In this document: one piece after another, positions 27 through 10,959 of the stretch
Layout of the letters: the number at the start of each line of letters is the position of its first letter
Numbering within the stretch: position 1 is the first letter of the stretch
Source: Candidatus Micrarchaeia archaeon
GTDB taxonomy: Archaea > Micrarchaeota > Micrarchaeia > Micrarchaeales > Micrarchaeaceae
Direction of reading: 5' to 3'
Assembly (NCBI GenBank): GCA_049964795.1
Contig: JBMFWY010000011.1
Span: 1 to 25,044 of the forward strand
DNA length: 25,044 bases
The notes under the pieces: model-generated
What the model was told of the DNA's origin: nothing
The model's database searches: none
Seen by the model: only the letters and a program-made list of their open reading frames with translations
Translations under genes and position numbers: made by a program

Positions 27-27
27 T

Positions 28-99
28 TGGACCCAGCGGGATTCGCACCCGCGACCTTCTCGTTGCGAACGAGACGCTCTACTCCTGAGCCATGGGCCC
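28..99 (-). tRNA. tRNA-Ala (anticodon CGC), intronless, CCA not encoded
   Basis: Reverse complement folds as a cloverleaf: acceptor GGGCCCA/TGGGTCC with the G3:U70 Ala identity pair, D stem GCTC/GAGC, anticodon stem TCTCG/CGAGA with loop TT-CGC-AA, T stem GCGGG/CCCGC, discriminator A. Confidence 0.96.
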
Positions 100-233
100 A
101 AAACGCGATGCTATTACCGATTACACAAAAGATAATATAAAGATTTCCTGAACAATAAAACCGTGCTTAAATGCCCGGCAGTGCAAAGAAAGCTAATAAT
201 GCATTTTACAAATTTGATGCGCACAGGCTATCG

Positions 234-7353: not shown

Positions 7354-7813
7354 AGGCAACGATGAATACAGAAAACTTGTCGAGGCTGCTCTTTTTGTAG
7401 CTGGAAAGCCACTAAGTGCTGAAGAGCTTGCACAAGCGATAGGCGTTGCATCAATAGGCTATGTAAGCAAGATGCTTGAGGAGCTTGCGAGCGAATATGA
7501 AAAGAGAGATACTGCACTGAAGATAACTAAGTTTGACGGCAAATATTCAATGGATGTCAAAAAGGAATACGCGGCCAAGGTGAACGAGCTTGCTGGGAAG
7601 CCGGAGCTGAGAAAAGGGGCGCTGAGGATATTGGCGTATATAAGCAAAAATGAGCCGGTTATGCAGAGCGCGCTGGTGAAGGTTTTTGGAGCCTCTACAT
7701 ACGACTATATGAAAGAGCTTGTGGAAAACGACTTTGTAAGCTCAAAAAAACACGGCAGGACGAAAAAGCTTGAAACCACAGAAAAATTCAGGGAATACTT
7801 CGAAATTACATGA
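7346..7813 (+). CDS. scpB: Segregation/condensation protein B (kite family)
   Basis: VEAALFVAGKPLS, ALRILAYI...PV-QS, TTEKFREYF; overlaps the scpA stop. Confidence 0.95.
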   Translation: MAEGNDEYRKLVEAALFVAGKPLSAEELAQAIGVASIGYVSKMLEELASEYEKRDTALKITKFDGKYSMDVKKEYAAKVNELAGKPELRKGALRILAYISKNEPVMQSALVKVFGASTYDYMKELVENDFVSSKKHGRTKKLETTEKFREYFEIT

Positions 7814-7815
7814 AT

Positions 7816-7959
7816 TCATGAAAGGATTAGAGAAATAAGCCTTGAGAAAAAACCGTGCTTTTTGTTATGCTGAACTTCCGCTTCAACGGGATAGCGTATG
7901 TCCCATATGCGCCCCGGCACCTTCTCCACTACCTTAATTTTGTTTTGCATTTCCTGCAT
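7816..7959 (-). CDS. Small 47-aa protein not in the ORF track (MQEMQNKIKVVEKVPGRIWDIRYPVEAEVQHNKKHGFFSRLISLILS)
   Basis: Translated by hand. Strong RBS AAGGTGA 4 nt before the ATG, starts 14 nt after the stop of the upstream minus-strand gene, and fills the gap to 2 nt from the scpB stop. Confidence 0.7.
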   Translation of the reverse strand: MQEMQNKIKVVEKVPGRIWDIRYPVEAEVQHNKKHGFFSRLISLILS

Positions 7960-7973
7960 GCTATCACCTTCAT

Positions 7974-8276
7974 TTATTTTTGCTGCCAGTGCCTTAGGTT
8001 GTAATAGTTAAGCGAAAGGTTATACCTGTTTTTCAGGCTCTCTGCTATTTCTTTTCCAAGATCCGCGCACTGGTCCAAAGCCGTCGCCCTTACAATAAGC
8101 CCGTATGGCGTTTCTTCTATACTAACGTTCTCTATTCCGCTTATGCTAAGCAGCTTCTGCGAAAGACCTTTGGCACTAAATCCCGCAAAAGGTTTTGCGA
8201 ATAGAAAACTGTGTACGCCCTTGCGCGAAGACGTCATATTTTTTTTCGGAAAATTTTTAACGGCCATAAAAATCAT
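7974..8276 (-). CDS. Small protein resembling a stand-alone Lrp/AsnC ligand-binding (RAM, ferredoxin-like) domain
   Basis: Beta-alpha-beta-beta-alpha pattern: SFLFAKP / AKGLSQKLLSISG / IENVSIEE / YGLIVRA / DLGKEIAESL; no HTH. Start 8276 or 8267. Confidence 0.65.
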   Translation of the reverse strand: MIFMAVKNFPKKNMTSSRKGVHSFLFAKPFAGFSAKGLSQKLLSISGIENVSIEETPYGLIVRATALDQCADLGKEIAESLKNRYNLSLNYYNLRHWQQK

Positions 8277-8296
8277 GTTTTTTGTGAAACAAGCAT

Positions 8297-8506
8297 TCAG
8301 AACAAGTTTGCAGGAGCAGGAAGGAACAATACGTAAAATTTAATGTGCCAGGTGGGAGAAGATCTTTGACTGCGATAAACTGCCTTATGCGCAACGGGCA
8401 TTGCAAGCTTTTGGGTTTTGGGGAATTGGCTGCTTTTGACAGCAGAAGAAGCATCAGTGCCATAGAGGTACGCACCGGCGTTTTCTATTCCGCGTTCATT
8501 GACCAT
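8297..8506 (-). CDS. Small hypothetical protein (69 aa from MVNERG)
   Basis: AGGTGG RBS just upstream of ATG 8506; first ORF downstream of the minus-strand TATA box at 8573-8580. No family recognised. Confidence 0.5.
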   Translation of the reverse strand: MVNERGIENAGAYLYGTDASSAVKSSQFPKTQKLAMPVAHKAVYRSQRSSPTWHIKFYVLFLPAPANLF

Positions 8507-8570
8507 TCCCCCACCTGTTCGGCCAGCCAAGGCAATAAGCCTTGTCAAGCACGCTTATTATTACAGAGGC

Positions 8571-8589
8571 ACTATATAAATAGCCTTTG
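8571..8589 (-). promoter_or_regulatory. BRE-TATA promoter of the small-gene operon
   Basis: Minus strand reads CAAAGGCTATTTATATAGT. Confidence 0.55.
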
Positions 8590-8653
8590 AATATATCTGT
8601 ATTTGTTTAATTACATATATATGCAAAATTGATGCATATTTTAGATTTTCTTT

Positions 8654-8745
8654 TATTACTAATACATTGTTGAGCTTTTACAACAATAAAGTTTTACTAA
8701 TAAGTAATCAAATATAATAATAGAAATGTTTATATATTAGTAATA
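8654..8745. promoter_or_regulatory. Operator-like region plus BRE-TATA of the Lrp-like gene
   Basis: TATTACTAATA (8654-8664), TTACTAATA (8694-8702), inverted copy TATTAGTAATA (8735-8745) overlapping the TATA box TTTATATA (8729-8736); inverted repeat ATTGTTG-N8-CAACAAT (8666-8687). Confidence 0.55.
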
Positions 8746-8759
8746 ACTAAATTGCAAAC

Positions 8760-10139
8760 ATGGAGCTGCCAGATAAGATAAAAGAGGCGATAGAAGAGCT
8801 GAAGAAGAGACATAGCCATAGCGTAGTTGCGAAATTCTTGAAAGGCAACTACTATGCCTATGAGGTATATACAAAATGGGATCCCCTCATTAAAAGGCGA
8901 AGGACTTATTCGCTATACCTTGGCAAGATAGAACAAGACGGCGAGCTTATACAGCCCCATAGAAAATTGGATATAACACGAGGCGCGAGAAGCGTGGAAG
9001 GGTATGCAAGGGCAAAGAGCGAGAAACAAAGCATAAAAGAGCATGAAGGGAATAAAGAAGATATAGCCATACTAACCGCTTTGAGCACAAATGCACGTTC
9101 GTCCTACGAAGAAATAGGCAAGAAGGCAGGCATTTCCGCACAAGCGGCAAGGCGCAGGATAAAGAAACTGGAGGAAAAGTATGCTATTACTTATACTATT
9201 GACACACATGCGGCGCTTAACTTTGGATTTTATAGGTTTATAATAACAGTTAAGTTTAACGGAAGCAAAAGGCCGCGCAAAGAGGAGATAAGGAGGGAAC
9301 TTGAGAAAGAACCTAGAGTACAGCTAGTAATGAGTACAAAAGGTGAATTTGATCTGCTTATATACGCGCTATTCGAGAACACAGTAAAACTAGACGATTG
9401 GCTTTACGGACTGAGAAAATCGGAGGCCTTTGCCAACTTGGATGCGGATTGGAATGCTTCTTACTTTCTTATATCCAACGGCCTTGTGCCTTTGCGGGAT
9501 GAATTCTTCGAGATAGTTAAAGAAAGGGTATGGCATAGAACCAGAGAAACGCCAAGAAGAAAGGAGGGGGAGATATTCTATAGGGAATACGCGGTACTTA
9601 GGGCCCTGAATAAAAATGGGGTAGAAAAGTTCAACGAAATAGACAAGGGGTATGGACTGAGGAAAGGAAGTGCAGATTATACCTTTCAAGAACTAATGCA
9701 AAAGAAGGTAATAAGGCGCGTTACGATATCAATGGGCAATCTGCCAATCAAATATTTTGCAATAATTAGGGTAGAGATCCAAAATATGGAAGACTTTCTC
9801 GCAAAAGGTAAAAACTACTTTCTTTATATGATGCAGGACAAAGGCATGCTCACAAACAAAGTTATAATCTCGGGAGATATAGGCGCGCCGTATAGCATGA
9901 TAAGCGTTCATCCTGTATATATGGAAGAAGGCCTTGATAAGATAGAAGAGGATATTTATGGAATGCTGAAAGGAGTAAAAGTAAGCAGCACCATAGTTTC
10001 GGAGATAATATTGGGAAGTATTTGCCTAAACAAATTAGAAACAGTGGAGATGCCAATATACGAGTTCCTAAAGAAGGAGTACAATTTAAGCGATGAAGAG
10101 GTATTGCAAGAGATTAGGAGTTTAGATCAATCTGATTAA
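8760..10139 (+). CDS. Large Lrp/AsnC-family regulator: N-terminal transposase-like beta domain plus tandem (wHTH-RAM)x2
   Basis: DIAILTALSTNARSSYEEIGKKAGISAQAARRRIKKLEE (AsnC HTH), VQLVMSTKGEFDLLIY (RAM), second HTH EYAVLRALNKNG...SADYTFQELMQKKVIRRVTI, and a degenerate second RAM. Confidence 0.85.
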   Translation: MELPDKIKEAIEELKKRHSHSVVAKFLKGNYYAYEVYTKWDPLIKRRRTYSLYLGKIEQDGELIQPHRKLDITRGARSVEGYARAKSEKQSIKEHEGNKEDIAILTALSTNARSSYEEIGKKAGISAQAARRRIKKLEEKYAITYTIDTHAALNFGFYRFIITVKFNGSKRPRKEEIRRELEKEPRVQLVMSTKGEFDLLIYALFENTVKLDDWLYGLRKSEAFANLDADWNASYFLISNGLVPLRDEFFEIVKERVWHRTRETPRRKEGEIFYREYAVLRALNKNGVEKFNEIDKGYGLRKGSADYTFQELMQKKVIRRVTISMGNLPIKYFAIIRVEIQNMEDFLAKGKNYFLYMMQDKGMLTNKVIISGDIGAPYSMISVHPVYMEEGLDKIEEDIYGMLKGVKVSSTIVSEIILGSICLNKLETVEMPIYEFLKKEYNLSDEEVLQEIRSLDQSD

Positions 10140-10407
10140 GGATCGGTACAAAAGCTTGGCAAATTGCCAATTTAAACACTTGACTAAATAGGAATACCAC
10201 TATATACAATATGCACAAAGTAAAATAAGATAAAAAACAATAGCTCGCATTTGCCAGCTTTAACTTTTATAAAGTAGAATATCTGCGCAGTTTACGCGTC
10301 TCCTCCGCCGGGTCCTCTCATTTTATTCACCACAGTTTTAACATTGAATGGAAATCTTTAAATACTTTTGCTTAAACTATGACACATTATTAGAACAGTA
10401 TAAAGCG

Positions 10408-10959
10408 TCAATAGTGGGGGTTCGCTTCTTCTACGCCCTCTTTCTTATTCATGTAAAGAGCCGCAACAAACAGGTAAGAAGAAAGCCGGTTTAGATAGGG
10501 AAGAGTATTGATGCTGTTCTTGTACTTTGGGATAATTTTTACCACACACCTTTCGGTCCTGCGCGCAATCGCTCGTGCTACATGCAGATAGGACGATGCC
10601 TCAGAGCCTCGTGGTAAAACAAAATTTTTCAGGCCCGGCAGCCTTGAGGCGAGATCCTCGATTGCTTCTTCAAGTGCCCGAACTGCTGGCCTTCCCAGCT
10701 TTCTCTTTGGAGCAAACCTGCTGTTTATGCATGCCGCAAGCTCGGCGCCAGCTATAAAAAGGTTCTCCTGGGCGGCTTCGAGCTGCTTTGCTACTTTGTC
10801 ATCATCTATGCTCAACAATGCAAGGCCGATGAAGCTGTTTAGCTCATCTATGGCGCCGATAGCTTCGATTATTTCGCTGCCTTTGTATACCTTCTTTCCT
10901 AGCATGATGGAGTACCCCGCATCCCCCGTGCCCGTATAAAATCTTGTCATGTTTTGCAT
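10408..10959 (-). CDS. pduO: PduO-type ATP:cob(I)alamin adenosyltransferase
   Basis: YTGTGDAG, GAIDELNSFIG, FVLPRG, LHVARAIARRTER, YLNRLS-YLF motifs; start 10959 or 10950. Confidence 0.93.
   Translation of the reverse strand: MQNMTRFYTGTGDAGYSIMLGKKVYKGSEIIEAIGAIDELNSFIGLALLSIDDDKVAKQLEAAQENLFIAGAELAACINSRFAPKRKLGRPAVRALEEAIEDLASRLPGLKNFVLPRGSEASSYLHVARAIARRTERCVVKIIPKYKNSINTLPYLNRLSSYLFVAALYMNKKEGVEEANPHY

Follow-up and report, generated by a model that had tools for sequence, protein, structure and literature searches.

This analysis concerns a small gene cassette in a stretch of 25,044 nucleotides from a Candidatus Micrarchaeia archaeon (assembly GCA_049964795.1, contig JBMFWY010000011.1, positions 1 to 25,044; the whole stretch is here called the window). 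The cassette consists of a gene for a double Lrp/AsnC-type transcriptional regulator, a divergently transcribed gene for a protein with a RAM domain only, and microprotein genes coupled to the latter. It is a real and conserved arrangement, restricted to one lineage: it recurs within the genome and across an order with its linkage and gene order retained, and its RAM and 47-aa (amino acid) genes are under purifying selection. The genome is 725 kb in size, in 34 contigs, and 91.6% complete. An earlier reading made from the letters alone (the sequence-only reading) had described four open reading frames (ORFs) of 459, 69, about 100 and 47 aa. All four lie where it placed them (Table 1), and the three small ORFs are packed tightly on the minus strand, with gaps of 20 and 14 nt.

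A second copy of the cassette is present in the same genome on contig C3, with the same order and orientation. Its regulator and its RAM protein are each 37% identical to those of the window, and a gene of the 47-aa type follows directly downstream. The neighbouring genes differ from copy to copy, being scpB and pduO in the window and the genes for ribosomal proteins L30e and S12 on C3. When the flanks of the two copies are compared, no other conserved target, effector or neighbour gene is seen in the cassette.

Linkage was analysed by profile searches in 41 genomes, comprising this genome and 40 relatives of the same order. The regulator family is found in 37 of the 41, with 2 to 11 matches per genome (11 in G040) in genomes of 0.4–1.1 Mb, and the RAM family is also found in 37. 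For the comparison of coordinates, 122 of the 150 regulator rows were entered, short fragments being left out, together with 60 of the 63 RAM rows, of which the three weakest (E 7.5e-5 to 3.2e-4) were omitted. On this basis a double-Lrp place is found no more than 1.5 kb away from 43 of the 60 RAM-gene places. Of these 43 pairs, 40 are divergently oriented, their hits lying a median of 426 nt apart. Among the 17 places counted as unlinked, at least two (G029:C33 and G036:C30) adjoin regulator fragments that had been left out of the comparison. The sequence-only reading had suggested testing whether such small ORFs are recurrently divergent from the regulator; their linkage to double-Lrp paralogues does recur, both within the genome and across the order.

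The domains of the regulator were read from a structural model. AlphaFold (AF2), using an alignment of 18 relatives, generates a model of the 459-aa protein with a predicted local distance difference test (pLDDT) of 90 and a predicted TM-score (pTM) of 0.77. The model contains an N-terminal domain (aa 1–95), a first helix-turn-helix (HTH1, aa 99–141), a first RAM unit (RAM1, aa 158–241), a second winged HTH (HTH2, aa 274–324) and a second RAM unit (RAM2, aa 332–419), and ends in two helices (aa 432–457). Both RAM units are modelled as β-α-β-β-α-β. At the sequence level, the first HTH is matched by Pfam HTH_AsnC (PF13404) over aa 101–138, with E 3.2e-12 and 46.5 bits against a cut-off of 27. 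The RAM family PF01037 scores 20.1 bits, under its cut-off of 25, and the second HTH has a weak Pfam match below cut-off (TrmB, E 5e-4). The best NCBIfam model is that of the Lrp-type regulator LysM (E 2.2e-15, aa 99–220), far under its equivalog cut-off. A Foldseek search with the model gives as its top match the fused NirDL (4ch7, E 5.5e-12, 359 columns), followed by many single Lrp/FFRP regulators at about 1e-5, and entire Lrp chains superpose on the model with a TM (target) of 0.7 and a root-mean-square deviation of about 3 Å. As modelled, the protein is thus a single-chain double Lrp, with the HTH-RAM unit present twice and an extra domain at the N-terminus. It is a fused derivative, and not a canonical dimerising HTH-RAM member of the Lrp family of about 150 aa. 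The tandem (HTH-RAM)x2 organisation had been recognised in the sequence-only reading, but the N-terminal domain had been missed.

The N-terminal domain is present in 13 of the 14 aligned rows entered as the long form of the regulator, and is absent from the 400-aa row L031 and from all four rows of the short form, a double Lrp of about 340 aa. Its alignment matches no Pfam or PDB family, and a feature search of the Atlas with it gave scores of 0.84 or lower, which is chance level. Relatives of the regulator carry generic names in the databases (‘Lrp/AsnC family transcriptional regulator’), in Micrarchaeia metagenome-assembled genomes. A homologue with 75% identity was found by a scan of genome collections in a Candidatus Micrarchaeota archaeon record, where the gene lies 70 nt from the contig end, so that any small genes there are not visible. 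Within the present genome PF01037 gives only sub-threshold matches, all of them in the two long double-Lrp genes and the RAM gene on C3, and this search showed no canonical single-unit Lrp with an above-cut-off RAM domain. The genome has a third double-Lrp copy, of the short form (L003, G000:C8:9933-10922, minus strand), for which the profile match reads through one TAG, and alongside which no RAM or microprotein gene was detected. At one locus of another genome (L045, G013:C1:536822-539800), two long-form genes are arranged head to tail, and neither a RAM gene nor a microprotein gene was detected.

The 100-aa protein, when searched alone, matches no Pfam or NCBIfam model and no HTH family. 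Its assignment comes from an alignment of the window protein with its homologues at 27 other loci. The profile of this family, compared with the PDB, finds the 75-aa RAM-only proteins of Pyrococcus first (2e1a/2cvi, E 1.3e-4), and then the RAM domain of PH1519 (E 4e-4). PF01037 is matched individually by 22 of the 28 members, with a best E of 6.3e-7. Judged by its sequence family, the ORF encodes a stand-alone RAM protein without an HTH, which is the type of partner that had been expected from the letters alone. Values of dN/dS for the gene (nonsynonymous over synonymous substitution rates, by Nei-Gojobori) are 0.08–0.21 in the six closest pairs, these being rough figures with dS near saturation. 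A protein homologue search found two homologues, with 96% and 56% identity, and a metagenome scan found no close orthologue of the window locus. The start of the ORF may differ from that in Table 1: alternative ATG codons at 8267 and 8237 would give proteins of 87–97 aa, and one of these may be the true start.

The microproteins are of two types. The 47-aa protein is predicted to form a hairpin (...VEKVPGRIWDIRY...), followed by a C-terminal motif of the GFFSRLISL type. A hidden Markov model (HMM) of this type matches ten loci, in all of which the gene lies directly downstream of the RAM gene, and gives no further match among 23,618 six-frame ORFs. Besides the window and C3, the ten comprise six loci from three further species of the genus and two from a single other genus. 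Purifying selection acts on this conserved ORF: the proportion of nonsynonymous differences (pN) is smaller than that of synonymous ones (pS) in all nine pairs, and dN/dS is 0.27–0.62 where it can be computed (Nei-Gojobori). The sequence-only reading had said that its proposal would fall if the small ORFs had no homologues, no conserved linkage or no purifying selection; homologues exist, and both the RAM gene and the 47-aa gene are under purifying selection. In the Atlas the best score for the 47-aa protein is 0.80, again at chance level.

In other genera a second type of protein, here called the ADE type, has 35–60 aa, with an N-terminal MGFFxxL-like motif followed by ...RP[IV]K[LV][IV]xxGxxSW[RQ][IV]V[WY]ADE. 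Conservation is strong in the hairpin and in the acidic end (...W[RQ][IV]V[WY]ADE), which in many cases is also the end of the protein. An HMM built from eight sequences gives 15 matches with E ≤2.3e-11 among 21,732 ORFs, all of them in cassettes, the next best having E 0.4. A similar hairpin and a short amphipathic GFFxRLxG-like motif occur in both types; the motif follows the hairpin in the 47-aa type and precedes it in the ADE type. By sequence the two elements look as if they had changed places, although the comparisons do not demonstrate homology. The 47-aa HMM does not reach the ADE type even when iterated, and hhalign places the hairpins in register with E 0.17 for small alignments, and with E 0.01 and a probability of 4% for alignments of 10 and 27 sequences.

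Microprotein genes were counted at 69 loci, a sample that is biased because part of it was chosen as already known to be linked. Of the RAM-bearing loci 33 out of 45 have a microprotein gene abutting the RAM gene. Ten of these genes are of the 47-aa type, always downstream; the other 23, all of the ADE type, are split between the upstream side (13) and the downstream side (10). The spacing between the RAM and microprotein genes is 25 nt or less, or a 4-nt overlap, in 29 of the 31 measurable pairs, and the gap is 282 nt at two paralogous loci. There are also four loci (L035, L038, L041 and L069) at which an ADE gene is divergent from a long-form regulator with no RAM gene.

The distribution is narrow. 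Across 201 genomes of the phylum, including the unpublished genomes G054 and G204, the ADE-type microprotein occurs in 33, namely 20 of 56 and 13 of 35 in two families of a single order, and in none of the 110 genomes of the other 23 families. For the RAM family, 42 of 56 and 29 of 35 genomes in the same two families are positive, and there are three weak matches in the 110 elsewhere.

The 69-aa ORF deserves separate consideration. Positional equivalents are found at three loci of the C3 type (L002, L006 and L007), with open frames of 58–86 codons and a conserved TATA of the form CTATTTATA. All four loci share a TATA box, a Shine-Dalgarno-like GGTTTGGGGTG, a start codon a few bases further on, and an open frame running to a conserved C-terminal motif, W-[DNH]-[IV]-K-x-x-x-x-x-[FL]-P, which can be abbreviated as W-[DNH]-[IV]-K-..-L-F-P. 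We consider that this is probably a real, fast-evolving microprotein gene. The less likely explanation is that the ORF is not a gene, and that its conserved 3' block is a DNA or RNA element, for example the promoter or leader of the RAM gene within a long 5' leader. This would agree with the fact that tblastn with the ORF finds no significant match, that the N-terminal two thirds cannot be aligned even among orthologous loci (14–22% identity to the window copy), and that the conserved block includes a TATA-like ATTAAA / ATATAAAG. Moreover, four other loci of the genus have spacers of 122–235 nt, with no room for the ORF. Counted on the same side are the lack of an Rfam match and an ordinary fold energy (z of -1.59 for the minus and +0.37 for the plus strand). 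These features are, however, set against the complete series of signals at all four loci, and against three further observations. The frames stay open in only 175, 69, 5 and 112 of 2000 dinucleotide shuffles (0.0875, 0.0345, 0.0025 and 0.056), in a test for which the frame and starts were picked after inspection; among the 11 codons conserved in L002, L006 and L007, a count by eye puts 5, 1 and 8 variable sites at codon positions 1, 2 and 3; and at 13 loci in other genera an ADE-type gene occupies the same position, upstream of the RAM gene. A non-coding RNA in the spacer or the 69-aa region was dropped as a candidate, there being no Rfam match at the gathering score, only chance-level matches at E up to 10, and the fold energies just given.

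The expression signals of the locus are listed in Table 1 with the other features; a look-up of sequencing runs for positions 7700–10200 gave none. The sequence-only reading had noted two clear GGTG ribosome-binding sites and a TATA box belonging to the small genes, and all three are present. GGTG lies at 8515–8512, 5 nt ahead of the ATG of the 69-aa ORF, and GGTGAT at 7968–7963, 3 nt ahead of the ATG of the 47-aa ORF; inspection of the sequence upstream of the 100-aa ORF reveals no GGTG-type motif. The two TATA boxes form an inverted pair. That of the regulator is so close to the ATG that a leaderless or near-leaderless mRNA is to be expected. The intergenic spacer (8549–8759) is 211 bp long and AT-rich, with a local G+C content of 21%. 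It contains two perfect palindromes, 43 bp apart, which differ solely by a compensating C/G swap, and a half-box. Lrp dimers recognise sites of 13–17 bp, according to the available excerpts of a 2010 review (PMC2995911), which makes these 14-bp boxes reasonable operator candidates.

Table 1 Features of the cassette in the window
Feature	Position	Strand	Basis or remark
Gene for 459-aa double Lrp/AsnC-type regulator	8760..10139	+	HTH_AsnC match, structure model, fold matches
Predicted N-terminal domain of regulator	8760..9044	+	model: one helix and three strands (aa 1-57), then linker helix
Gene for predicted stand-alone RAM protein (‘p100’), 100 aa	7974..8276	-	family profile; PF01037 in relatives
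Gene for 47-aa microprotein	7816..7959	-	local HMM; pN < pS; GGTGAT
69-aa ORF (‘p69’), probable gene	8297..8506	-	69 aa from ATG; 83 aa if TTG at 8548
TATA box of small-gene operon, TTTATATA	8573..8580	-	sequence inspection; ~70 nt upstream of 69-aa ATG
TATA box of regulator gene, TTTATATA	8729..8736	+	23 nt ahead of 459-aa ATG
Candidate operator box 1, TTACTAATAAGTAA	8694..8707	.	perfect palindrome, 14 bp
Candidate operator box 2, TTAGTAATAACTAA	8737..8750	.	perfect palindrome; between regulator TATA and ATG
Half-box, TTACTAATA	8656..8664	.	38 nt from box 1

On the basis of these observations, we hypothesise that the cassette works as a switch that regulates itself: feedback on the double-Lrp regulator would come from the RAM protein, either alone or together with the microproteins. 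We give this an even chance of being correct. The regulator would act as a single-chain ‘pseudo-dimer’ that binds the palindromic boxes in the spacer. The position of box 2, between the TATA box and the start codon of the regulator gene, suggests autorepression. From the same spacer the regulator would also control the divergent promoter, which would drive the RAM gene and the microprotein genes that flank it (69 aa upstream, 47 aa downstream). The RAM-only protein may then dock on the RAM core of the regulator by RAM-RAM contacts, and in so doing change its assembly state or its response to an effector, as is reported for FL11 of Pyrococcus with DM1 in vitro, thereby closing the feedback loop. 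The microproteins would be made in step with the RAM protein, to judge from the short gaps and overlaps of their genes, and are most likely its partners or modulators. To call the switch self-contained draws solely on the absence of any other conserved neighbour gene. A co-fold of two copies of the RAM protein (aa 14–100) with the 47-aa protein gave a score of 0.09 (mark 0.32), in a run made without controls that weighs neither way.

A number of points tell against this proposal or its components. First, the linkage is asymmetrical: the RAM gene is nearly always found with a regulator, but RAM genes accompany only about half of the regulators of the long form. A divergent RAM gene stands at only 31 of the 59 long-form regulator places and at 6 of the 48 short-form places, RAM genes being rare near the short form, and at one of the 12 places that match only from about profile position 150 onward. 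Second, in G002 the RAM and microprotein genes occur without a regulator gene, which sits on another contig. At this locus (L007, G002:C26) the genes for the RAM, 47-aa-type and 69-aa-type proteins lie beside those for L30e and S12; the regulator gene is at L067 (G002:C30) and is 52% identical to the C3 copy. The separation is due either to a rearrangement or to a break in the assembly. Third, the RAM protein of the window has no PF01037 match even at E 0.1, and its similarity to RAM1 of the regulator is weak (hhalign E 0.0038, probability 8.8%). Its structural model is a single β-α-β-β-α-β unit with pLDDT 71, and the fold matches are generically ferredoxin-like, with HMA domains and S6 ranking as high as RAM proteins; ST1022, PH0061 and 2cvi are among the ferredoxin-like matches given by Foldseek and VIA-align, with Z of 9 or lower. 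The RAM assignment thus rests on sequence. Fourth, a fused double unit already pairs its own RAM domains, and it is not obvious how it would engage an additional RAM dimer. Fifth, the operator-like boxes read from the letters are present, as two palindromes and a half-site, but the case for an excess over chance is mixed. The number of palindromes is not above that in local shuffles, the window spacer having 2 (shuffle mean 3.7) and a set of 18 spacers 45 (against 49.7). Two perfect 5-4-5 palindromes alike at 12 or more of 14 positions arise in only 1 of 500 local shuffles, a statistic chosen post hoc, after the boxes had been seen. Within the 25-kb window the box pattern is found here only, with 5 strand matches against 0.98 expected under a control that ignores the local 21% G+C.

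Alternatively, control of the divergent operon may be all that the double Lrp does, the RAM protein and the microproteins having their roles elsewhere and exerting no feedback on it. In one version the RAM protein would sense amino acids and have a small partner of a membrane-active or toxin/antitoxin-like kind. We regard this as a somewhat improbable explanation, though one to be taken seriously. In its favour, RAM and microprotein genes occur together without a regulator gene in G002, and without a detected regulator at L011, and about half of the long-form regulators are not near a RAM gene. The short amphipathic motif of the microproteins would suit such a role, and the presence of several cassette copies per genome is common for toxin-antitoxin-like or accessory modules. 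However, the RAM, 47-aa and 69-aa proteins and two ADE-type proteins match no PADLOC, PHROGs or Pfam model, and the comparison of flanks described above reveals no other conserved target or effector gene. In addition, a RAM-only gene beside a RAM-containing regulator is an arrangement that has a precedent in hetero-assembly, as far as the available excerpts of the literature go. The HTH of the regulator finds only generic HTH matches of the Csa3/CasR type.

A further alternative is suggested by the Rgg/SHP systems, in which a TPR-type (tetratricopeptide repeat) receptor regulator is encoded adjacent to or divergent from a very short ORF, and the arrangement exists as several paralogues within a genome. 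The cassette resembles these in layout only, having a regulator gene, a divergent or adjacent very short ORF and paralogous copies; this is an analogy and not membership, as the fold of the cassette regulator is of the Lrp type and no secretion signal is seen in the microproteins. The microproteins might nevertheless be signals in such a system built from Lrp parts, with RAM domains, in either the RAM-only protein or the regulator, as their sensors; we consider this explanation doubtful. Stated in molecular terms, they would be genetically encoded ligands of RAM domains, in which the hairpin with its acidic end and the amphipathic motif bind the RAM-only protein, or the RAM or N-terminal domain of the regulator, and so set its assembly state; this too seems to us unlikely. 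In support of the idea we note the four loci at which a microprotein gene faces a long-form regulator that has no RAM gene, the strong conservation of the hairpin and acidic end, the location of ADE genes on either side of the RAM gene, and the confinement of the microprotein family to the lineage in which the regulators are expanded. Conversely, no signal peptide and no export or processing genes were noticed in the cassette, the homology of the 47-aa and ADE types is unproven, and the RAM effectors on record, in the available excerpts of the review, are amino acids and small metabolites (PMC2995911). If this is correct, the cassette would be the first case in the Lrp family of a switch gated by proteins or peptides in place of an amino acid. 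In a DPANN archaeon that depends on a host and carries several paralogues, it could serve in peptide-based sensing or signalling.

Finally, it is very improbable that the 459-aa protein is a siroheme decarboxylase like the fused NirDL or the heterodimeric AhbA-AhbB, with the small genes as unrelated neighbours: although it shares with these Lrp-like proteins two tandem HTH-RAM units in the chain, and NirDL is the top structural match of the whole model, it falls outside the AhbA family (NF040708, E 0.019, 14.7 bits against a cut-off of 140), its HTH fits the models of DNA-binding Lrp regulators far better, the tetrapyrrole genes ALAD (PF00490) and porphobilinogen deaminase (PBGD, PF01379) were not found in this 91.6%-complete genome but are both matched in 11 of 14 control genomes, and such an enzyme would explain neither the 2 to 11 copies per genome nor the conserved pairing with RAM and microprotein genes.

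The closest described system to the feedback switch proposed here is that of FL11 and DM1. According to the excerpts of PMC2995911, FL11 of Pyrococcus horikoshii (PH1519) forms a hetero-octamer with DM1 in vitro, stand-alone RAM proteins have been suggested to work through hetero-oligomers, and their physiological role was described in 2010 as unclear. The cassette resembles this system in that an HTH-RAM regulator of the Lrp/AsnC family is found along with a RAM-only protein of about 75–100 aa, and in that the best solved relatives of its RAM family are the Pyrococcus proteins 2e1a/2cvi and the RAM domain of PH1519. It differs in four respects. The regulator is a fused double unit with an additional N-terminal domain; the RAM gene is divergent from the regulator, to which it is genetically tied across an order; coupled to the RAM gene are one or two genes for microproteins; and the cassette has multiplied within very small genomes. 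Neither a dedicated pairing of regulator and RAM genes nor the microproteins are described in the excerpts of that review, and no description of this cassette was found in the available parts of the literature on stand-alone RAM proteins, fused Lrp proteins, or the Lrp-AsnC regulators of Micrarchaeota and DPANN. The sequence-only reading had offered the locus as its best candidate for a novel system. That overstates the case: the locus represents the known combination of full-length Lrp with stand-alone RAM, in a form specific to its lineage. Its new elements are the fused double regulator, the N-terminal domain of the latter, and the microproteins of two types; that the cassette has multiplied in genomes so small is a further distinctive trait.

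These elements are of wider interest for three reasons. A RAM-only gene that is hard-wired to a particular regulator across an order provides a defined pair for the idea of hetero-assembly. Archaea of restricted metabolism have few Lrp regulators, two being predicted in Nanoarchaeum equitans, in the excerpts of PMC2995911; up to 11 double-Lrp matches in genomes of 0.4–1.1 Mb therefore represent an expansion of regulators that is unexpected in a reduced, host-dependent genome. Lastly, microproteins of 35–60 aa are easily overlooked by gene callers, and a case tied to a regulator adds a concrete archaeal example.

It is worth adding some details of the surroundings. The flanks of the block are housekeeping genes, as had been read from the letters, identified by Pfam as scpA/scpB and a PduO-type adenosyltransferase. 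The genes for scpB (plus strand) and the 47-aa protein (minus strand) meet tail to tail at 7813–7816, with 2 nt between the stop codons, which leaves no space for a terminator between them. A tRNA-Ala with anticodon CGC (27–100, minus strand) is the sole Rfam or ARAGORN match in the window. On the other side, the gene for the PduO-type cobalamin adenosyltransferase lies at 10408–10959 on the minus strand (Pfam E 6.9e-44), and its presence in a genome in which ALAD and PBGD were not found suggests corrinoid salvage and not synthesis.

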